Assembly (NCBI GenBank): GCA_034431095.1
Contig: DAOUDM010000019.1
Location: 13,653-77,652 of the forward strand
Source of the DNA: Dehalococcoidales bacterium
GTDB taxonomy: Bacteria > Chloroflexota > Dehalococcoidia > Dehalococcoidales > W693
Direction of reading: 5' to 3'
DNA length: 64,000 nucleotides
Shown here one piece after another: positions 799-62,894 of this stretch (the first letter of the stretch is position 1; each line of letters starts with the position of its first letter). The position numbers and the translations under genes were made by a program. The notes beneath the pieces were generated by a model, which made no database searches, was not told the origin of the DNA, and saw nothing but the letters and a program-made list of their open reading frames with translations.

Positions 799-2007
799 AT
801 GAGTAGCAGTTTTGAAAGCTCCCCCAATTATTTGATTACCTCGGAATCGGTTACCGAGGGCCACCCGGACAAGATGTGCGACCAGATATCGGATGCCATC
901 CTGGATGCCATTCTCAAGCAAGACCCCTGCGGCAGGGTAGCCTGCGAGGTAGCCACCACCACCGGACTGGTAATAGTCCTGGGGGAGATTAGCACCAAGT
1001 GCTATGTCGAAATCCCCCGCATCGTACGGGATACGGTGCGTGATATAGGCTATACCAGGCCCGAGTACGGCTTCGATTGTCAGTCGTGCGGGGTGATGGT
1101 CTCCATTACCGAGCAGTCCAGCGATATCGATATGGGAGTAAGCAAGTCGGCGGAAGCCAAAACAAGCCGGACTACCGACGACCTGGACAGGGTCGGCGCC
1201 GGCGACCAGGGGATGATGGTCGGCTTCGCCTGCAACGAGACACCGGAGCTGATGCCCCTGCCCATCTCCCTGGCGCATAAACTGTGCCGCCGGCTGGCTC
1301 AGGTAAGAAAAGATAATACTCTGCCCTACCTCCGCCCCGACGGTAAATCGCAGGTGACGGTGGAATATCGCAACGGAAAACCAAGAAGGGTGGATAGCGT
1401 GGTGATTGGCGCCCAGCACGACGATAATGTCAACCACGACCAGATTGAACAGGATATTATAAAGCGCGTAATCAAGGAAATCGTTCCCCCGGAGTTGATA
1501 GACGATAAGACTAGATACTACGTCAATGCCACCGGACGGTTTGTCATCGGCGGCCCGATATCCGATACCGGCTTCACCGGTCGCAAGATCCTGGTCGATA
1601 CCTATGGCGGCGTCGCCCGTCACGGCGGCGGCGCCTTCTCCGGTAAAGACCCGACCAAGGTCGACCGCTCGGCGACCTATATGGCGCGCTACATCGCCAA
1701 GAACCTGGTCGCCGCCGGCATAGCCGAGCGGCTGGAAATACAGATTGCCTATGTTATCGGCGTCGCCCATCCGCTGTCCGTTTCCGTGGAGACCTTCGGC
1801 ACCGGTAAGATAGATACCCAGACTATCAAAGATCTGATTAAAAAGCACTTTGACCTCAGGCCGGCGGCTATCATCAAGACGCTTGACCTCCGCCGCCCGA
1901 TATACCGGCAGACCGCCGCCTACGGGCACTTCGGCAGAACCGATATTGATTTACCCTGGGAAAAGACTGACATGGCCGATATTTTAAGAAAAGAGGTTGG
2001 GCTTTAA
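799..2007 (+). CDS. metK: S-adenosylmethionine synthetase
   Basis: The 402-aa ORF carries MetK motifs ([29 protein letters not shown]). An AGGAG SD sits upstream at 788-793. Confidence 0.95.
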
Positions 2008-2043
2008 TCACTTTTTCTGAATAGTGCTAACAGGAGATAGCTT

Positions 2044-2562
2044 ATGGATGGGTGGCTATATGGATTATTCGCTCTAGCAGGAGTAATTGTAGGCGGTTTT
2101 TTCACTTTTTTAGGACTTGTTAAGCAACTAGGACAACAAAAGGAATTAGATTCTCGTCAATGGCAACGTAAGATTAGAAGCGAACCGTTACTTAAATTAA
2201 GGGATGAGTTAGCTATAATGGCAACTATGCAAAATAGAGTTGCTAACGCCGCAGAAAAACTATATAACATAGATAGCGATGGGATGGAAAAGGCAAATAT
2301 AGAACTAGAAGAAGCTATAAATGATTGGAATACCTATTTATCAAAGGGAAATCTATTTCAAACTTTGCTTATACAATACGATACAGAACTTTTTAACAAT
2401 GTGCTTAATATTCAGAAAAGTTATATTACCTCTTATCACACCCTACGGCATAAGGTATCTAAAAGAGATGAACGGGATAAAGCTATAGGACCACTAAGTA
2501 AAGTTTGGCAAAATGTAATTTCAGCTCAAGAACTAATCAACAAACGACTAGAGGAACTTTAA
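2044..2562 (+). CDS. hypothetical protein with N-terminal transmembrane helix (AT-rich orphan)
   Basis: 172-aa ORF with an SD (CAGGAG) upstream. The N-terminus is hydrophobic (WLYGLFALAGVIVGGFFTFLGL). It is visibly AT-richer than its flanks and I recognise no family. Confidence 0.5.
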   Translation: MDGWLYGLFALAGVIVGGFFTFLGLVKQLGQQKELDSRQWQRKIRSEPLLKLRDELAIMATMQNRVANAAEKLYNIDSDGMEKANIELEEAINDWNTYLSKGNLFQTLLIQYDTELFNNVLNIQKSYITSYHTLRHKVSKRDERDKAIGPLSKVWQNVISAQELINKRLEEL

Positions 2563-2565
2563 AAA

Positions 2566-2722
2566 GCGGGGAGTTTGAGGGGCGAAGCCCCTCATTAAAA
2601 AGCTTCCCCTTCCCCTTGGCAAGGGGAAGGGGATAAAGGGGATGGGGTTGATAAGAATAAGACACACTTCTATCTTTTCCCACCCGCCGCCCTTTAAGGA
2701 ATAAGATAAGGGGGTGAGGTAG
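2566..2722. repeat. intergenic hairpin-repeat cluster C1 (modules M1+M2+M6)
   Basis: Contains hairpin TGAGGGGC-GAA-GCCCCTCA (2576-2594) and a 13-bp perfect hairpin TCCCCTTCCCCTT-GGC-AAGGGGAAGGGGA (2605-2633) with tail TAAAGGGGATGGGGTTG. It then has TTCCCACCCGCCGCCCTTTAAGGAA. Near-identical copies occur at 39860-39945 and, inverted, at 50459-50545. Confidence 0.85.
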
Positions 2723-4147
2723 ATAAATCCTATAAAGTTTGGCACCGACGGCTGGCGAGCAATCATCGCCGAGGACTTCACCTTTGACAACGTTCGCCTC
2801 TGCGCCCAGGCGGTCGCCGTATATCTTAAAGACAGCGGGCTGGCACAAAGGGGGCTGGTCATCGGCTACGATACCCGCTTTGCCTCCGAAGACTTTGCCC
2901 GGGCCGCCGCCGAGGTAATCTGCGGCAACGGGATAAAGGTATACCTGTGCCCCAGAGCCGCCCCGACGCCGATGGTCAGCTATGGCGTCCTGGCAAAGCA
3001 AGCCGGCGGGGCTATCGTTATCACCGCCAGCCATAACCCGCCGCAATGGAACGGCTTCAAGTACAAGTCGGCAAACGGCACCAGCGCCCCGACGGAGGTC
3101 ATCGCCGAGCTGGAGAAGAGCATCGCCACTATTACCACTACGGGCAAGATAAGCCGAATACCGCTGGCTGAAGCTCAAAAACAAGGGCTGATAGAATACA
3201 CTGATCTGGCGCCAAGCTATGTAGAGCAGATAAAGAGCCTCATAGACCTTGACGGATTAAGAAAAGCCGGGCTCAAGATAGTGGTTGACTCTATGTACGG
3301 TGCCGGCGCTGGCTACTTTAAGATGCTTCTGGATGGAGGTGCCACAAAGCTCCTGGAGATAAACGACGAACGCAACCCTGTCTTCCCCGGCATAAAACAG
3401 CCGGAGCCGATTGCCGTCAATCTAGCTAAGTTATCAGACAGGGTCAGGCGGGAAAAGGCTGACATCGGTATCGCCACCGACGGCGATGCCGACCGTATCG
3501 GCATTATAGATGAAAAGGGCAACTTCCTGACCCAGCTCCAGGTCTTTGCCCTGCTGGCGCTATATCTTCTGGAAGTGCGTGGTGAGCGGGGCGCCATTGT
3601 TAAGACGATAACCACCACCAGCATGCTCTACCGTCTGGGCGAGATATTCAATGTGCCTGTCTATGAAACACCGGTGGGCTTTAAGTACGTCGCCCCGATA
3701 ATGCTCGCCCGGAACGCCCTCGTTGGTGGGGAGGAGAGCGGTGGCTATGGCTTCCGCGGGCATGTGCCCGAGCGCGATGCTATACTCAGCGGACTCTATT
3801 TCCTTGATCTGATGGCCAGGACGGGCAAGACGCCATCGCAGTTGCTGGACTACCTCTACAGCAGGGTAGGTCCTCACTACTACAGCCGTCTGGATATAGA
3901 GTTTGCCGAGGAGCAGAGAGAGAAAATAATCAGCCGCGTCCGGGATAGCTCTCCGGAGACGCTTGGCGGGGTTAAGGTGGCTAACAAAGACACCATCGAC
4001 GGTTTCCGCTTTACCCTGGCCGATTCCTCCTGGCTTCTCATCCGCTTTTCCGGCACCGAGCCACTGCTCCGCATCTATAGCGAAAGCAATAGCCAGTCCC
4101 GCGCCGAAAGACTGCTCGAACTGGGCCGGGAGATAGCCGGGGTCTAG
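2723..4147 (+). CDS. phosphoglucomutase/phosphomannomutase family protein (alpha-D-phosphohexomutase)
   Basis: Has the active-site TASHNP motif and the conserved N-terminus KFGTDGWR, which is encoded at 2735-2758. The frame is open from 2723. The first canonical start is ATG 2972, which would delete about 80 conserved residues. The proposed start is ATA 2723 (or 2732), downstream of AAGGGGGTGA (2708-2717). Confidence 0.8.
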   Translation: MNPIKFGTDGWRAIIAEDFTFDNVRLCAQAVAVYLKDSGLAQRGLVIGYDTRFASEDFARAAAEVICGNGIKVYLCPRAAPTPMVSYGVLAKQAGGAIVITASHNPPQWNGFKYKSANGTSAPTEVIAELEKSIATITTTGKISRIPLAEAQKQGLIEYTDLAPSYVEQIKSLIDLDGLRKAGLKIVVDSMYGAGAGYFKMLLDGGATKLLEINDERNPVFPGIKQPEPIAVNLAKLSDRVRREKADIGIATDGDADRIGIIDEKGNFLTQLQVFALLALYLLEVRGERGAIVKTITTTSMLYRLGEIFNVPVYETPVGFKYVAPIMLARNALVGGEESGGYGFRGHVPERDAILSGLYFLDLMARTGKTPSQLLDYLYSRVGPHYYSRLDIEFAEEQREKIISRVRDSSPETLGGVKVANKDTIDGFRFTLADSSWLLIRFSGTEPLLRIYSESNSQSRAERLLELGREIAGV

Positions 4148-35608: not shown

Positions 35609-35683
<75 letters not shown>

Positions 35684-41677: not shown

Positions 41678-41705
41678 ATAGTGTTTTGATTGATGGAGGC
41701 CTGTT

Positions 41706-42086
41706 ATTTACGCTGTTGTTGAAACCGGTGGCAAGCAGTATAAAGTAGCCCCCGGTCAGACCATAGATGTCGAGCGCCTGGGGGTAGCCGAGGGCGATAC
41801 CGTCGAGCTGGACAGGGTATTGCTTATTGCCGACGGCGATAGTGTAACGGTAGGCAAGCCCACCATTCCCGGGGCTAAGGTAGTGGCTACTGTAAAGGGA
41901 GAGGGCAAGGGCGATAAGGTTATCGTCTTCAAGTACAAGCCCAAGGTACGTTACCGTAAGAAGACAGGTCATCGTCAGTTCTACACCAGGCTGTCCATTG
42001 ATAAGATAAGCCAGCCGGGGGATCAAGGAGAGAAGCCCAAGAAACCCCGGCGGAGTAAGAAAGAGGTAACCGAAGGTGGCGCATAA
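41706..42086 (+). CDS. rplU: 50S ribosomal protein L21 (apparent ATT start codon)
   Basis: The conserved N-terminus (I/M)[13 protein letters not shown] is encoded from ATT 41706. An in-frame TGA lies at 41691, and no ATG/GTG/TTG occurs before ATG 41820. A GGAGG SD at 41695-41699 sits 6 nt upstream of the ATT. Confidence 0.8.
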
Positions 42087-47833: not shown

Positions 47834-47848
47834 GGTAAGGAGGTTGTT

Positions 47849-48277
47849 ATGGGATTATCAAATAAAGAGTCTGAGGCCAAACCATCTCAAGTTACTGATG
47901 TGTATTGGATTCATGCTGATAGAAGGAAAGGTAGCTATCCAATGCCTACCTCAAGAAATGGAAAATGGCTTATATTTGTAAAGGATAGAGACATAGATGA
48001 AGTATGGGATAAAATTAGAAAGGCTACAGAGGATGGTAAGTTAGGTAGTGGTGCGAAGGTAGCAACGGCTAAGCCTAGTCTACTAGGAGAATCGGGCACG
48101 AAGGTTATTTGTGTTTATACTTATGATTGGACAGACGAAAAAGATGTAAAGAGAGTTCGTGAAGAGCTTAAAAAACTTGGCATAACCAATAAGATACCTT
48201 ATAAATCGGATGAAGATACGCTAAGTGGGAAGTATATAGCAACTGGACACACAAGAATTAGTAAGTACTATGAATGA
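47849..48277 (+). CDS. AT-rich hypothetical protein (tentatively DUF1917/Bles03-like fold)
   Basis: 142-aa ORF with a GGAGG SD upstream. The pattern GKWLIF....IDEVW.KI..A...G.LG..AKV.T......VICVYT.DW.D..DV.RV...L resembles that family from memory only. Confidence 0.55.
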   Translation: MGLSNKESEAKPSQVTDVYWIHADRRKGSYPMPTSRNGKWLIFVKDRDIDEVWDKIRKATEDGKLGSGAKVATAKPSLLGESGTKVICVYTYDWTDEKDVKRVREELKKLGITNKIPYKSDEDTLSGKYIATGHTRISKYYE

Positions 48278-50437: not shown

Positions 50438-50454
50438 GGCTTAGTGTTTTAGTC

Positions 50455-50548
50455 TTAACAACCCTATCCCCTGTATCCCCTTCCCCTTACAAGGGGAAGG
50501 GGAATATTTTTATAAGAGGGGCTTCGCCCCTCTCGGACTCTCGATTTA
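50455..50548. repeat. intergenic hairpin-repeat cluster C5 (M2+M1 in inverted orientation)
   Basis: CAACCCTATCCCCTGTATCCCCTTCCCCTT-ACA-AGGGGAAGGGGAA is followed by GAGGGGC-TTC-GCCCCTC. This is the reverse-orientation counterpart of C1. Confidence 0.9.
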
Positions 50549-50571
50549 CTTATTGAGGCTTGTAAAAGGGA

Positions 50572-50600
50572 TTGACAAAACAGTAAATAAATGTTACACT
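50572..50600 (+). promoter_or_regulatory. sigma-70-like promoter of the AT-rich ORF
   Basis: TTGACA (50572-50577), N17, TACACT (50595-50600), with TGT immediately upstream. Confidence 0.55.
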
Positions 50601-50636
50601 AATAACAATCTTACTAATAATACTATGGAGGTAAAT

Positions 50637-51119
50637 ATGTCACCGGTTATACGCATTGATGACGAGGTAATGAAGGCTCTAAAGGAGAGAGCAGTAAAAT
50701 TAGGGTTAGTTTTTAGTACTCCAAATGAGGTACTAAGGGCCTTATTTGAGTTGGATAAGCGAAATAATATATGTAGTGATAAGTTCGTAGATATACAAAT
50801 AAAAAATATATATACTCCACAACGGTGGGCTCTCATCCCTATACCTAGAAGGAAAAGGCGGTTTTTCCCTGGTTTTAAGCTACCATTCTTATTAGAAACA
50901 GACTTAGGTGATATTAGAACGCATGTTACATCTGCTCTAAGAGGAACACGTATAGGTGACCCAGATGGTGGGGCATATATACAGACTAAACTTCGCAGGT
51001 GGTTTGACGAACATGAATCGCAACTGGTAGATGGAGTCACTCTTCGCTTCGAAGCTCTAGAACAGGGGAAACGATATAAGCTTTCCATAGTAGGCGGCGA
51101 GTCAAAGAAGGGTGTTTAA
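50637..51119 (+). CDS. AT-rich hypothetical protein (possible RHH-like N-terminus plus beta-barrel DNA-binding-like domain)
   Basis: ATG 50637 has a GGAGG SD 5 nt upstream. The protein begins MSPVIRIDDEVMKALKERAVKLG. The remainder (FFPGFKLPFLLETDLGDI, LRRWF, GVTLRFE) only loosely resembles B3/AbrB-type barrels. Confidence 0.5.
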   Translation: MSPVIRIDDEVMKALKERAVKLGLVFSTPNEVLRALFELDKRNNICSDKFVDIQIKNIYTPQRWALIPIPRRKRRFFPGFKLPFLLETDLGDIRTHVTSALRGTRIGDPDGGAYIQTKLRRWFDEHESQLVDGVTLRFEALEQGKRYKLSIVGGESKKGV

Positions 51120-57307: not shown

Positions 57308-58174
57308 CTATGTTTTTGGCTCAAGCTCAAGGCTGAAGTCCAGCGCCTTCGCCGAGTGGGTTATAGCGCCAACGGAGATGGTATCGACCCCGGCCAGAGC
57401 CACCGTGCGGACGTTATCCAGTGTTATGCCTCCCGAGGCTTCGGTCTTTACCTTCGCCGGCATTAACTCCATCACCCGTTTTATCTGGTCAGGGGGTATA
57501 TTGTCCAGCATAACTATATCGGCGCCGGCATTAGCGGCTTCTATCGCCTCGGCAGTGGTATCGACCTCTATTTCAATTTTTAAGCCCTCGGGGGCATTCT
57601 TTCTGGCCCTGGTTATTATGTCTGCCAGGCTCATACCCAGCGCCCGTAGTGCCGCTATATGATTGTCCTTGATAAGAATCCCGTCGCCGAGGTGGAGGCG
57701 GTGGTTCTGCCCGCCGCCGATGCGTACCGCATATTTGTCGAGCAGTCTCATACCCGGTGCCGTCTTGCGGGTATCGGTTATGATGGTGGCAAATCCCTTT
57801 ACCCGGGCGACGTATCTGGCTGTCTCGGAGGCGACGCCGCTCAGGCGGCTCAGGAAGTTGAGGGCGACCCGCTCCGCCCTGAGAATACCTGCCACGTTAC
57901 CGGCGATGGTGGCTACCCTGTCCCCCGCTTTTAGCCCTTCTCCATCCGGGATAAGTAGCTCTACCGCCAGCGATGGCTCAGCCCTGACAAACACCAGCCT
58001 GGCGATGTCACCGCCAGCCAGTATGCCTTCTTCTTTAGCCACTATGGCTGCCCTGCCGGCGAGGTCGGCTGGTATCAGTATCTGGCTGGTTATATCACCA
58101 CCGCCGGTATCCTCGGCCAGCGCCAGGTCTATGATTCTATCAACCTGCTCTTCGGATAGTTGAAGTTTATCCAT
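57308..58174 (-). CDS. nadC: nicotinate-nucleotide diphosphorylase (carboxylating)
   Basis: 288-aa ORF with the QPRTase pattern (AL.ED.G.GD.T, RKT.PG.R, IMLDN). Confidence 0.9.
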   Translation of the reverse strand: MDKLQLSEEQVDRIIDLALAEDTGGGDITSQILIPADLAGRAAIVAKEEGILAGGDIARLVFVRAEPSLAVELLIPDGEGLKAGDRVATIAGNVAGILRAERVALNFLSRLSGVASETARYVARVKGFATIITDTRKTAPGMRLLDKYAVRIGGGQNHRLHLGDGILIKDNHIAALRALGMSLADIITRARKNAPEGLKIEIEVDTTAEAIEAANAGADIVMLDNIPPDQIKRVMELMPAKVKTEASGGITLDNVRTVALAGVDTISVGAITHSAKALDFSLELEPKT

Positions 58175-58194
58175 CTACCTCACCCCTGTAACAT

Positions 58195-58512
58195 TCTCTT
58201 GGAGGGTGGTGGGTGGGTATAGATACTAAAAGAAAAATTACTATTCATAACAACCTCTCCCCCTTAATCCCCCTCTCCTTGTAAGGAGAGGGGGAGGGTT
58301 AATATGGAGGGACTGCGTCCCTCCAAACCTCCCTCTATTATGTTTTATATGGGTTATATTCCCCTAAACCTCACTCTATTGTGTTTATATGGGCTGTATC
58401 CCCCAAACTTCCCTTTCGAGCTTTGCCCCTCTTAAACATTCCTTTTATTCCATTTATTCCCTCTCCCTTTATTACAAGGGAGAGGGATAGAGGGAGAGGG
58501 ATTTATATAATT
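58195..58512. repeat. intergenic hairpin-repeat cluster C8 (M6-M3-M4-spacer-M5) between nadB and nadC
   Basis: Holds GGGTGGTGGGTGGGTATAGA, an 11-bp hairpin at 58268-58295, GGAGGGAC-TGC-GTCCCTCC at 58306-58324, and an 11-bp hairpin at 58459-58486 with tail ATAGAGGGAGAGGGATTTATA. It is collinear with the left part of C2. Confidence 0.9.
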
Positions 58513-58515
58513 ATG

Positions 58516-60060
58516 CTAATCATTATTTATCACGATGTGCTTGCGCCACTCGGGTGAAGTCTCGGGGAAATCGGAGCGGAAGTGAGCGCCACGGCTCTCC
58601 TGTCTCAGGATAGCCGCCTCGGTCAGCAGGCGTCCGGTCAAGACCAGGTTTGCCATCTCGTACGAAGGACGGTCTTTCGGCTGGGGCAGGGACTCCTGCC
58701 AGCCAGCCAGTGTCTCGGCGGCTTCGACCAGCCCTTCTTCGTTCCGGATGATGCCTGCTTTATCCCAGAGGAGCCGTTGCAGGGTGGGAAGGCTGGGTGA
58801 AATCTTCCTCTTGGGTGGCTGTCTCCGCTCGAGCGAGAGGTGGATGTCTGCATCCTGACCGGGGACGGTCGCTGTCGGTTTGTCCGGCCTGCCGGTCTTT
58901 TCTATAATCCTCTTACCGAAAATCAGCACCTCCAGCAGTGAGTTCGAAGCCAGTCGGTTTGCCCCGTGGGCTCCGGTGCAGGCAACTTCGCCGGCGGCGA
59001 ACAGCCCGGTTATGCTGGTTTCGCCCCAGGTGTTGACCCTGACGCCGCCTATGGTGTAGTGGGCGGCTGGTGCCACCGGTATCGGTTGCTTGGTTATATC
59101 CAGGCCGTGGTCGAGGCAGAAGCAGTATATCTGGGGGAATCTGGTGGCGGTAATGTGGGGTGGTAGATGGGTGACGTCGAGCAGGACATTGTCCGCCCCG
59201 GTCTTTTCCATTTCGTGTAAAATACTGCGGGCGACGATGTCTCGCGGCGCCAGCTCGGCCTGCGGTGTATAGTCGGGCATAAAGCGGTAGCCTTCTATGT
59301 TGCGCAGTATTCCCCCCTCGCCCCTTACCGACTCCGAGATGAGGAAAGGGATTACCCCGGGAAGACACAGTGCGGTGGGGTGGAACTGGAAAAACTCCAT
59401 GTCTACTATCTCGGCGCCAGCCCGGAAAGCCAGGGCTATGCCGTCGCCGGTGGCTATCGGGGGGTTGGTGCTGAACTTAAATAGCTGTCCGGCGCCGCCG
59501 GTAGCCAGCATCAAGAAGTGGCCGCCGAACTCTTCGGTGGAGTTGTTCTCGCAGTCGAGGACTCTTACCCCGTTGACCCTGCCCTTCTCCACGATGATAT
59601 CGGTCGCCAGGTGGTGCTCCATGACCCGTATTTCAGTTGAGAGCACCCTTTTACTCAGCGTTAGCTCGATATGTTCACCGGTGGTATCGCCTCCGGCGTG
59701 GAGGATACGGGGCAGGCTGTGTGCCGCCTCCAGGGTGAGGTCAATCTCTCCGTCTAGTGTATCGAAGGGCACGCCCAGGTTGACTAGGTCAGCGATGCGG
59801 TCGGGGGCTTCGTTGACCAGGATACTCACCGCCTCTTCGTTGCACAGACCATCGCCGGCGGTTATGGTATCCTTGAAGTGTAGCTCCGGCGAGTCGCTTT
59901 TGCCTATAGCGGCGGCGATGCCCCCCTGGGCTAACCTGGTATTGCAGTCGTCGATACTGCCCTTGGTTATCAGGAGCACGCTTCCCTGCTCCTGTGCCAG
60001 CAGGGCACAATACAGCCCGGCAATACCACTGCCGACTATGATGTAATCATAGCGATAAAT
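58516..60060 (-). CDS. nadB: L-aspartate oxidase (apparent ATT start codon)
   Basis: The FAD-binding N-terminus YDYIIVGSGIAGL is encoded upstream of the first canonical start, GTG 59979. The frame is open from 60117. ATT 60060 has GGGAGG 7 nt upstream. Confidence 0.8.
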   Translation of the reverse strand: MYRYDYIIVGSGIAGLYCALLAQEQGSVLLITKGSIDDCNTRLAQGGIAAAIGKSDSPELHFKDTITAGDGLCNEEAVSILVNEAPDRIADLVNLGVPFDTLDGEIDLTLEAAHSLPRILHAGGDTTGEHIELTLSKRVLSTEIRVMEHHLATDIIVEKGRVNGVRVLDCENNSTEEFGGHFLMLATGGAGQLFKFSTNPPIATGDGIALAFRAGAEIVDMEFFQFHPTALCLPGVIPFLISESVRGEGGILRNIEGYRFMPDYTPQAELAPRDIVARSILHEMEKTGADNVLLDVTHLPPHITATRFPQIYCFCLDHGLDITKQPIPVAPAAHYTIGGVRVNTWGETSITGLFAAGEVACTGAHGANRLASNSLLEVLIFGKRIIEKTGRPDKPTATVPGQDADIHLSLERRQPPKRKISPSLPTLQRLLWDKAGIIRNEEGLVEAAETLAGWQESLPQPKDRPSYEMANLVLTGRLLTEAAILRQESRGAHFRSDFPETSPEWRKHIVINND

Positions 60061-60117
60061 TGGGCTACCTCCCAGACCATATAGTTGACTTTGGTTAGGG
60101 GTATGGCGAACGGGTCT

Positions 60118-60477
60118 CTACCTGGTTTCTTCCTGTTTGCCGGCGATGCCGTTTCTGGCGACCCTTATTGTTGCCCCCGATTCCACCTTCAGGACGACAC
60201 TGTCCTCCTGGACGCTTTCAATGCGACCGTAGATACCGCCTACGGTGATTACCCTGTCGCCCTGGCTCAGCCCTTCGGCAAGCTCCTGGTGCTCCTTTTG
60301 TCTTTTACGCTGTGGTCGGATGATAAGAAAATAGAAGATACCAAAAAGCAATGCCATGAAGACTACCAGATAGATGGTGCTGGTGGTGTCTCCACCTTCC
60401 GTCGTGGTACAACCGCCCATAAGTGCCAGACCTAGCGCCAGCAATAGTACCAGGGCTAGAGATGCTACCTTTGCCAT
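60118..60477 (-). CDS. yajC: preprotein translocase subunit YajC with N-terminal signal/lipobox-like extension
   Basis: The YajC core is present (FYFLIIRPQRKRQKEHQ, GD.V.T.GGI.G). It is preceded by a signal-like LALMGGC segment. Confidence 0.8.
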   Translation of the reverse strand: MAKVASLALVLLLALGLALMGGCTTTEGGDTTSTIYLVVFMALLFGIFYFLIIRPQRKRQKEHQELAEGLSQGDRVITVGGIYGRIESVQEDSVVLKVESGATIRVARNGIAGKQEETR

Positions 60478-61771: not shown

Positions 61772-61963
61772 CTATAAGAACCAAAGTTGGAATTGTTGAT
61801 AAGTCTCTTTATCGTGAAAATCCATGTCTTTGTCATCTTCCCAGACTAATTCAGTAAAGTTGTCATAATCTTCACCGTATCCTTTGCACATGACGAATAT
61901 TCGCCTAAAAGGATTGAGTTTTAAAATAACTCTTGCTAAAAACGGATTAATTGTTGTTGACAT
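61772..61963 (-). CDS. small AT-rich hypothetical ORF downstream of the DpnI-like gene
   Basis: A 63-aa ORF from ATG 61963, which lies 4 nt after the upstream stop, or 74 aa from TTG 61996. No SD is evident and I recognise no family. Confidence 0.35.
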   Translation of the reverse strand: MSTTINPFLARVILKLNPFRRIFVMCKGYGEDYDNFTELVWEDDKDMDFHDKETYQQFQLWFL

Positions 61964-61967
61964 GCTT

Positions 61968-62738
61968 TTATGCAAGGCGGTAAAGTCCTCGTTCAATAAA
62001 CTCCAGATAGCCTTTATCTCTTAAAATCTGTAACTGTTGGCGGATTTTATCTTTAATGTGCTTGTTATCTGGATGTTTTTTGCTTAATACGTTTTCGAAA
62101 GCGTAGACTTCATCAAGGGAAAATTCTTCATTCCCAAGTTCTTCAACACATTTCATGACGTCCAAAAGCCAGCCTTTTGCGTATATCTCCTTTTCTTCTC
62201 TTAAGAAAAGAGTCTTTTGCCATGTTGCAAGAACTTTATCCTTAGGCTCAACTTGGCTGTTTTTAATAAAGAATATTTTCCCTGTTTGAGGAATGCTTTT
62301 CAGTATAATATTACATCCGACCCAACCAGCACGTCGTGCAGTTTGTGCTAACGCTTTTCTTTTTTCTATTATCTCAGGAATAAAGAAGTGTTTGGGTATA
62401 ACGAAAAGATTTAAAACCATAAGATTTTTTAAGTCGTAATTTAACAGAAAGAAGTTTGGATTATTGCTATCCAGCAATCTTTCAATCATGGTACTGTATG
62501 CGCCATTGACTATTTTATTTCCAAATTTATCCCTCTTGCTTTTTAATTCATAAACCTCCTTACAGTTAGAACAGAAAAAATCGGAGACAGGTTTATTGTT
62601 CGCATATTTATTGATGTCAATATTCCCGCAGTTAGGACAATAAACATGATTGCCAACCCAACTCTCAGTTAGAACTCTAATTCTTTGAGATGGATTTTTA
62701 TAATCCTGGGCTAAATCTATTTGAAAGGATAGATTCAT
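61968..62738 (-). CDS. DpnI-like (Dam-replacing family) methyl-directed type IIM restriction endonuclease
   Basis: 256-aa AT-rich ORF. It closely parallels remembered DpnI features: SQRIRVLTE.W....YCPNCG, PV.DF.C..C.E.YELKS, NNPNFF.L.Y, ARRAGW.GCNI, and a C-terminal winged helix with HIK.KIRQQLQILRDK. Confidence 0.85.
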   Translation of the reverse strand: MNLSFQIDLAQDYKNPSQRIRVLTESWVGNHVYCPNCGNIDINKYANNKPVSDFFCSNCKEVYELKSKRDKFGNKIVNGAYSTMIERLLDSNNPNFFLLNYDLKNLMVLNLFVIPKHFFIPEIIEKRKALAQTARRAGWVGCNIILKSIPQTGKIFFIKNSQVEPKDKVLATWQKTLFLREEKEIYAKGWLLDVMKCVEELGNEEFSLDEVYAFENVLSKKHPDNKHIKDKIRQQLQILRDKGYLEFIERGLYRLA

Positions 62739-62802
62739 ATTTCCAGATAGAGCTTTAAGTGTGGTACTTCATAGTAAGGAGTTTTCATTTTTTATCTTTC
62801 TC

Positions 62803-62894
62803 TGGCGGAGGGGGAGGGATTCGAACCCTCGACCCCGGTTTCCCGGGGTAAGCGCTTAGCAGGCGCCCGCACTAGGCCACTATGCGACCCCTCC
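62803..62894 (-). tRNA. tRNA-Ser (anticodon GCT), CCA encoded
   Basis: The reverse complement is GGAGGGGTCGCATAGTGGCCTAGTGCGGGCGCCTGCTAAGCGCTTACCCCGGGAAACCGGGGTCGAGGGTTCGAATCCCTCCCCCTCCGCCA. It forms a class II cloverleaf with a long variable arm and anticodon loop CTGCTAA. Confidence 0.92.

Follow-up and report, generated by a model that had tools for sequence, protein, structure and literature searches.

The codons AUU, AUC and AUA are non-canonical starts and are discriminated by initiation factor 3 (IF3) (PMC5499595). In Escherichia coli and many other bacteria, infC, the gene of IF3, starts with AUU (AUC or AUA in some lineages), which is read by the initiator tRNA and discriminated by IF3 (PMC5499595; PMC2830850), and IF3 regulates its own synthesis through the AUU or AUC of infC (PMC5499595). 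Messengers starting with AUU compete poorly, above all at low temperature or in the presence of guanosine tetraphosphate (ppGpp) (PMC5499595), and non-canonical codons in E. coli reporters initiate at 0.01-2% of the AUG level (bioRxiv 10.1101/063800). The AUU start of E. coli pcnB, encoding poly(A) polymerase I, keeps low an enzyme needed in small amounts, according to the citation of that work in PMC2830850. Lineage-conserved non-canonical starts of core genes, misplaced by automatic annotation, have also been described for dnaA (ATC) and rpsL (CTG) of Deinococcus and for ebpA (ATT) of Enterococcus faecalis (PMC2830850, PMC4447247), and several core genes of a single Deinococcus genome carry such starts (PMC2830850). 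Here we describe a candidate of this type, the L-aspartate oxidase gene nadB on a 64,000-nucleotide stretch of a Dehalococcoidales bacterium (assembly GCA_034431095.1, contig DAOUDM010000019.1), the whole of which is called the window below. Translation of this gene very probably starts at an ATT codon at 60060-60058 of the minus strand.

Similar to infC, nadB combines a conserved AUU with a housekeeping function and a position inside an operon. The AUU of infC closes an autoregulatory loop because its product is IF3 itself, whereas NadB has no link to translation, and a dependence of nadB on IF3 would be passive. The pcnB start was established by experimental mutagenesis, whereas the AUU of nadB is joined to a near-perfect Shine-Dalgarno (SD) sequence and is conserved in a clade of uncultured Dehalococcoidia. 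In addition, the Deinococcus and ebpA cases were proven by N-terminal proteomics or mutagenesis, whereas the evidence for nadB is comparative. The literature was searched for ATT starts of nadB and of Dehalococcoidia or Chloroflexi genes, and nothing relevant came up. The AUU start of nadB thus appears to be a fresh, comparatively well-supported case of the known AUU-start type and not a new mechanism. The elements of the start region are as follows.

58516-60060, minus strand: recommended annotation of the nadB (L-aspartate oxidase) coding sequence, which has 514 codons, begins at ATT 60060 and ends with the stop codon TAA 58518-58516.
60058-60060, minus strand: proposed initiation codon ATT, aligned with the start methionine of the orthologues.
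60067-60073, minus strand: SD sequence GGGAGGT, in which GGAGGT, 6 nt ahead of ATT, complements ACCUCC at the 3' end of 16S rRNA.
59980-60057, minus strand: 26 codons between ATT and the first canonical start, coding for strand beta-1 of the Rossmann fold and for the dinucleotide-binding loop GSGIAG.
59977-59979, minus strand: GTG, the first canonical start, an internal valine codon at which the public gene call for this genome begins (487 aa, P0361).
60061-60117, minus strand: yajC-nadB spacer of 57 nt, in which no promoter- or terminator-like site was found.

The nadB frame on the minus strand is open from 60117, next to the yajC stop codon TAG (60120-60118), which falls in the same frame; yajC itself is the open reading frame (ORF) 60118-60477 (Pfam YajC). 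Among the in-frame codons of the window between this stop and ATT there is no ATG, GTG or TTG. GGGAGG (60073-60068) is followed by the 7-nt spacer TAGCCCA (60067-60061), by ATT and then by YRYDYIIVGSGIAG, and the translation of the minus strand from 60120 to 58516 reads a stop, then RPVRHTPNQSQLYGLGGSPIYRYDYIIVGSGIAGLYCALLAQEQGSVLLITKG and so on. The flavin adenine dinucleotide (FAD)-binding fingerprint YDYIIVGSGIAGLYCALLAQEQG is encoded at 60051-59983 and its GSGIAG at 60033-60016, both ahead of GTG 59979. This GTG, 27 codons 3' of ATT and past the GxGxxG FAD motif, is the first in-frame ATG, GTG or TTG, and a listing of ORFs with canonical starts gives solely the 487-aa nadB ORF 58516-59979. 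A first-pass annotation made from the letters of the window had already proposed ATT 60060 as the start, and its placement of the open frame (from 60117), of GGGAGG 7 nt before ATT, of the motif and of GTG 59979 proved exact. The spacing from GGAGG to ATT is 7 nt (6 nt from GGAGGT), compared with mostly 4-6 nt for the canonical genes of the window that have GGAGG; it is slightly longer, at the long end of the range in the window.

The product matches the NCBIfam profile TIGR00551 with 543.3 bits (cut-off 452.75), residues 5-499 covering profile positions 4-489 of 489, so that profile position 4 pairs with residue 5 counted from ATT. Pfam FAD_binding_2 (positions 1-414) and Succ_DH_flav_C both match as well. 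With the ATT-start reading, the alignment to the structure of E. coli NadB (1CHU) sets in at residue 4 and runs through the strand-loop DVLIIGSGAAGL, and the four motifs FHPTAL, LAPRDIVAR, PAAHYT and HGANRLASNSL, which we take to be conserved active-site motifs of the NadB family, are all identical or near-identical to 1CHU. By sequence comparison, the gene product is identified as L-aspartate oxidase NadB. Position 1 of FAD_binding_2 corresponds to the aspartate at 60048, 23 codons 5' of GTG 59979, and the N-terminal beta-alpha-beta FAD fold with GxGxxG is complete only with a start at or before about 60048. A start at GTG 59979 loses strand beta-1 and the GxGxxG loop; therefore the 27 N-terminal residues are indispensable, in agreement with the first-pass annotation, which had dismissed this GTG for cutting the motif. 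Among the 27 codons including the start, compared over 12 clade members, 16 columns show synonymous change only, 2 are invariant and 9 show amino-acid change, which argues that the 27 codons evolve as coding sequence.

Relatives of nadB were collected by protein search, and the DNA around the start was fetched for both long and short kinds of homologues, using assemblies from NCBI, ENA, JGI and Logan sources. The two kinds of close homologues are proteins of 513-516 aa beginning M-x-x-YDYIIVGSG and proteins of 483-488 aa beginning at the GTG-equivalent or an adjacent internal codon. L081 (GCA_042579985.1; protein MFC2026973.1, 92% identical) reads ctgGGAGGTagcctgATTtatcac, and NCBI places its start at ATT (gene 1906-3447), as it does in L205 (GCA_011170385.1), which reads GGGAGGTAGCCCG ATT AAT CGC. 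The same ATT, preceded by GGAGGT, is found in L082, L083, L084, L206, L207 and L209, and ATT also stands in L027 and L036, which came from the genome scan; L208 follows the pattern but has ATC at the homologous codon. The ATT codon thus occurs in 11 other independent assemblies (L081-L084, L205-L207, L209, L027, L036 and L158), of which L158 represents a second lineage. Within the clade of the window, 12 of 13 members have ATT (the window included) and one has ATC, no member read at the DNA level has ATG, GTG or TTG at this codon, and the GGAGGT 6 nt upstream is invariant except for GGGGGT in L027. No independent copy of the window's own contig is on record, as judged by a look-up via P0361.

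The ATT codon lines up with the start codons of the orthologues, whose N-termini coincide with it (MSYYDY in P0009, MSRYDY in P0016 and MGNYDY in P0017). More distant Dehalococcoidia (L003-L026 and the metagenome sample) have ATG, GTG or TTG at the ATT codon or the adjacent one. Three relatives (L205, L084 and L027) have an in-frame stop 8 codons 5' of ATT, so no other upstream start is shared; in L084 the 7 codons from this stop to ATT (CAT AGC CCG GGA GGT AGC CCG) contain no near-cognate start at all. The clade conservation of ATT, the coding constraint downstream of it and the absence of another shared start bear out the first-pass proposal. The two outcomes that would have spoken most directly against it, an ATG at 60060 and a different upstream start in orthologues, did not appear: the 11 further assemblies read ATT and one reads ATC, and the orthologues start at the same position.

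In a neighbour-joining tree of 103 full-length NadB sequences, the 10 full-length sequences with ATT or ATC group together as one clade. L016 and L197, the sister group of this clade, have TTG one codon upstream, and the outgroups have ATG or GTG, the next ones beyond L016 and L197 using ATG. Divergence from the window at four-fold-degenerate sites ranges from 18% (L081) to 45% (L083 and L208) with no change to ATG, and ATT has therefore survived extensive synonymous turnover. A metagenome scan with the pattern YD/EYIIVGSGI[AG]G, in which the start codon was left unconstrained, gave 80 tabulated loci, 52 with ATG and 9 with GTG three codons before YDY, and also a second pair of ATT loci (L158 and L173) unrelated to the clade of the window. 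Of 152 Dehalococcoidia-type nadB loci, 97 have ATG as the nearest usable start, 24 have GTG, 13 have TTG and 18 have none. Loci without a canonical start comprise the ATT clade (13 members, counting the window), L158 and L173, L029, L014, L115 and L131. Among these, L029 has ATC after AGGAG. In L014 (2990-3010), L115 and L131, ACG stands 6-8 nt behind an SD of the GGAGG type, and in L131 there is no ATG, GTG or TTG between the upstream stop and this ACG. Weak or odd starts thus seem to recur at nadB.

The predicted pairing of the SD region with the anti-SD averages -11.35 kcal/mol in the clade (range -9.8 to -13.8), compared with means of -5.8, -6.7 and -7.0 kcal/mol for orthologues with ATG, GTG and TTG, respectively. 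All six frames of the window were scanned for GGAGG 4-10 nt before an in-frame ATT, ATC, ATA or CTG that lies 5' of the first canonical start and leaves at least 70 codons. Only two sites were found, nadB 60060 and rplU 41706, each exactly at the N-terminus of a conserved protein, and the SD-ATT arrangement of nadB therefore exceeds chance. Weaker matches to 4-mers of the SD in the same scan are shadow ORFs or lie beside an obvious canonical start.

Based on these comparisons, we propose how nadB might be translated. The near-perfect SD GGGAGGU (60073-60067) would pair with the 3' end of 16S rRNA and set the AUU at 60060-60058 (minus strand), as the initiation codon, in the P site 6-7 nt downstream, where the initiator fMet-tRNA would decode it with a third-position mismatch. 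NadB would then begin Met-Tyr-Arg-Tyr-Asp-Tyr-Ile-Ile-Val-Gly-Ser-Gly, and the N-terminal peptide expected from the ATT start would be (M)YRYDYIIVGSGIAGLYCALLAQEQGSVLLITK. By analogy with E. coli, proofreading by IF3 against AUU would make initiation inefficient and sensitive to the IF3 level and the growth state, and the unusually strong SD would partly compensate for the weak AUU. The most likely outcome would be weak, IF3-sensitive translation offset by a strong SD, giving a low output of NadB that is set independently of the neighbour cistrons yajC and nadC on the same transcript. This low output may be what selection maintains. nadC (QRPTase_N and QRPTase_C) lies directly 3' of nadB at 57308-58174, and the gene order methylthiotransferase-yajC-nadB-nadC is also found in L081, L083, L205, L206 and L208. 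Because of this conserved order and because the minus strand of the yajC-nadB spacer has no promoter- or terminator-like site, the methylthiotransferase gene, yajC, nadB and nadC probably form an operon with nadB as an internal cistron.

Rfam at gathering thresholds detects two tRNAs only in the whole window and gives no match at the nadB start, and the region from -40 to +40 around ATT folds no better than shuffled sequences (z = -0.76). RNAalifold predicts two elements, a hairpin of 4 bp that covers part of the SD and a stem of 8 bp (CTATGAT/ATCATAG) within the codons for YDYII. These codons (TAT GAT TAC ATC ATA; 60034-60052, minus strand) form a perfect 7-8-bp inverted repeat, CTATGAT-TAC-ATCATAG, 9 nt after ATT. 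The stem arises because the Tyr and Ile codons, and the Asp and Ile codons, are reverse complements of each other. It is retained in most clade members, is broken in L036, L206 and L082, shows neither compensatory change nor covariation, and was rejected as a regulatory element; it may hinder initiation mildly at most. infC is not among the genes of the window. An initiator-type tRNA-Met is encoded at 35609-35683 (minus strand), with an anticodon arm, TCGGGCTCATAACCCGA, identical to that of E. coli tRNA-fMet, including its three G:C pairs, the feature of the initiator tRNA that IF3 inspects. This tRNA has a C1xU72 mismatch in place of the usual C1xA72, and its CCA end is encoded.

Several other accounts of the nadB start were weighed against initiation at ATT. 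A single T/G difference would suffice if the true codon at 60060 were an ATG hidden by a sequencing or assembly error, and the window comes from a single assembly; the ATT of the 11 other assemblies and the ATC of one more, together with the lack of ATG in every clade member read as DNA, leave practically nothing of this account. Equally close to zero is recoding, either by readthrough of the in-frame yajC TAG (60120-60118), since this stop shares the nadB frame in the window, or by frameshifting from the out-of-frame ATG 60080, which opens a 14-codon ORF in the +1 frame across the nadB start. In L081 and L205, yajC and nadB are in different frames, further in-frame stops intervene in L083 and L205, ATG 60080 is ATA or GTA in relatives, and no significant RNA structure (z = -0.76) or Rfam match is predicted here. 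Sequencing error, yajC readthrough and frameshifting are therefore treated as excluded. Prodigal-type callers pick GTG 59979 here and in L082, L083, L084 and L206, which would give the 487-aa protein P0361 and make the upstream open frame an untranslated leader. This is highly improbable, as the FAD domain of such a protein would be left without strand beta-1 and its GxGxxG loop, and the 27 upstream codons vary almost only synonymously at structurally fixed positions. In addition, the GTG is lost in relatives (GTC in L081, L207 and L208), where the callers slide to other internal codons and yield products of 488, 483 or 436 aa. A slim chance is left to another non-canonical start, as CTG 60075 upstream and ATC 60044 and ATA 60041 downstream are all in-frame near-cognate codons, and NCBI starts L209 at the ATA of YDYI-I-VGSG, the equivalent of ATA 60041. 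CTG 60075 overlaps the SD, has no SD of its own and is CTT, CCG, GCG, TTT or CCT in seven clade members, whereas ATC 60044 and ATA 60041 are 23-26 nt away from the SD, and a start at either would cost strand beta-1 its YRYDY(I); the N-termini of the orthologues, moreover, coincide with the ATT codon.

The remaining alternative accepts ATT as the start and differs from the proposed maintenance of a weak start by selection only in the reason for it. ATT would have no regulatory meaning; a mutation from ATG to ATT, or a start shift, would have drifted to fixation, as cells need little NadB and the strong SD kept ATT tolerable. We consider this a serious possibility, somewhat short of an even chance. 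It fits the same data, weak starts are common at nadB (24 GTG, 13 TTG and 18 without a canonical start of 152 loci), the third-position T is conserved no better than the isoleucine-codon background, and one clade member has ATC. A neutral site one step from ATG, in contrast, would be expected to revert somewhere at 18-45% four-fold divergence, and none did, and the second, independent origin of ATT in L158 and L173 points to a recurrent outcome at nadB. Further points weigh against the translation of nadB as proposed above. Judged by its third-position T, ATT is not by itself more strongly conserved than ordinary isoleucine codons, as 8 of the 22 conserved isoleucine columns have an identical codon in 9 or more of the 10 sequences; the case for ATT therefore rests on the absence of an alternative start. 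The correlation with a strong SD comes from one clade and is effectively one evolutionary event. The calls for P0364 (MIYRYDY) and P0007 (MINHYDY) begin one codon 5' of the isoleucine codon, and some lineage members may use codon -1 as their start. Finally, all data are comparative and derive from metagenome-assembled genomes (MAGs) of uncultured organisms.

The public annotation of this clade, that of NCBI's pipeline included, is inconsistent. NCBI places the start at the nadB ATT in at least three relatives, L081 (MFC2026973.1), L205 (GCA_011170385.1) and P0363 (MFC1875146.1), and in L209 (GCA_036482475.1, position 961) at the ATA six codons downstream of ATT. The NCBI PGAP entries MFC2026973.1, MFC1875146.1 and P0003 (GCA_011170385.1) describe the same gene with the same ATT and SD, with 513-514 aa counted from ATT; they are homology-driven start assignments without accompanying analysis. 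Prodigal-type calls in the clade (P0361-P0369) give 487, 488, 483 or 436 aa, depending on which internal GTG or TTG survives. For the genome of the window itself the public call is P0361, shortened to 487 aa, and the 90% cluster of P0361 has five more members shortened to 436 aa.

Two further genes of the window lack a canonical start. The first-pass annotation had counted nadB as the second ATT start with a good SD in the window, the other being rplU, and this agrees with the arrangement of rplU (41691-42086, plus strand), where ATT 41706 has GGAGG 6 nt upstream and an in-frame TGA (41691) five codons before. The codon preceding this ATT is GTT in the window, GTA in L210 and GTG in L211; L210 comes from the same MAG as L205 (GCA_011170385.1), and NCBI starts its rplU at ATT. 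For rplU, either a neighbouring GTG start appears to have been lost twice, or ATT is the real start throughout. The third gene, of the phosphoglucomutase/phosphomannomutase family (2723-4147, plus strand), matches Pfam PGM_PMM_I from residue 4 of its open frame, and its first canonical start, ATG 2972, is residue 84. ATA 2723 immediately follows an in-frame TAG and has GGGGGTGA (2710-2717) 5 nt upstream. The N-termini of relatives read MKNNPIKFGTDGWR, and the public call here is a 391-aa truncation (P0249). ATA 2723 is probably a third non-canonical start in the window, as read from one assembly.

Other observations concern further parts of the window. The nadB-nadC spacer (58175-58515, minus strand) measures 341 nt in the window compared with 93 nt in L081. 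Two perfect GA/CT-rich hairpins of 12-13 bp (58268-58295 and 58458-58487) delimit the extra sequence of about 250 nt (especially 58254-58501), which holds a direct repeat of 24 nt. This sequence resembles a small repeat element inserted here, similar to a miniature inverted-repeat transposable element (MITE) or a repetitive extragenic palindromic (REP) sequence; its core was not found a second time in the window. A gene for a DpnI-type methyl-directed restriction endonuclease (Pfam DpnI and DpnI_C; 61968-62738, minus strand; GC content at third codon positions (GC3) 0.32) lies beside tRNA-Ser(GCT) at 62803-62894, and the region 61772-62894 is probably a small acquired island. Further ORFs of low GC3 are 2041-2562 (0.24), 47834-48277 (0.28, Bles03-like) and 50445-51119 (0.35).

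Taken together, 3 of about 60 genes in the 64-kb window have no canonical start, namely nadB (ATT), rplU (ATT) and the phosphoglucomutase-family gene (ATA 2723), which is a high number. The related MAG GCA_011170385.1 shares both ATT starts, and other Dehalococcoidia nadB genes have ATT, ATC or possibly ACG starts. The three genes of the window suggest that non-canonical starts are commoner in the lineage than annotation pipelines assume. A stronger and rather speculative reading, to which we give a low probability, is that this Dehalococcoidia lineage tolerates or favours initiation at AUU, AUA or AUC (AUH) far more than model bacteria do, through a genome-wide relaxation or re-tuning of start selection. 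If that were true, the gene catalogues of the class would systematically truncate proteins, and its IF3 and ribosome system would be worth study.

AUU-type starts with experimental support are so far confined to a few genes (infC, pcnB and ebpA). To these, nadB would add a clade-conserved AUU start with an exceptionally strong SD in a biosynthetic gene, and a natural test case for the compensation of a weak start by a strong SD. For the biology of these organisms, the truncated NadB calls drop the FAD-binding motif, and metabolic reconstructions may thereby score de novo NAD synthesis as damaged.

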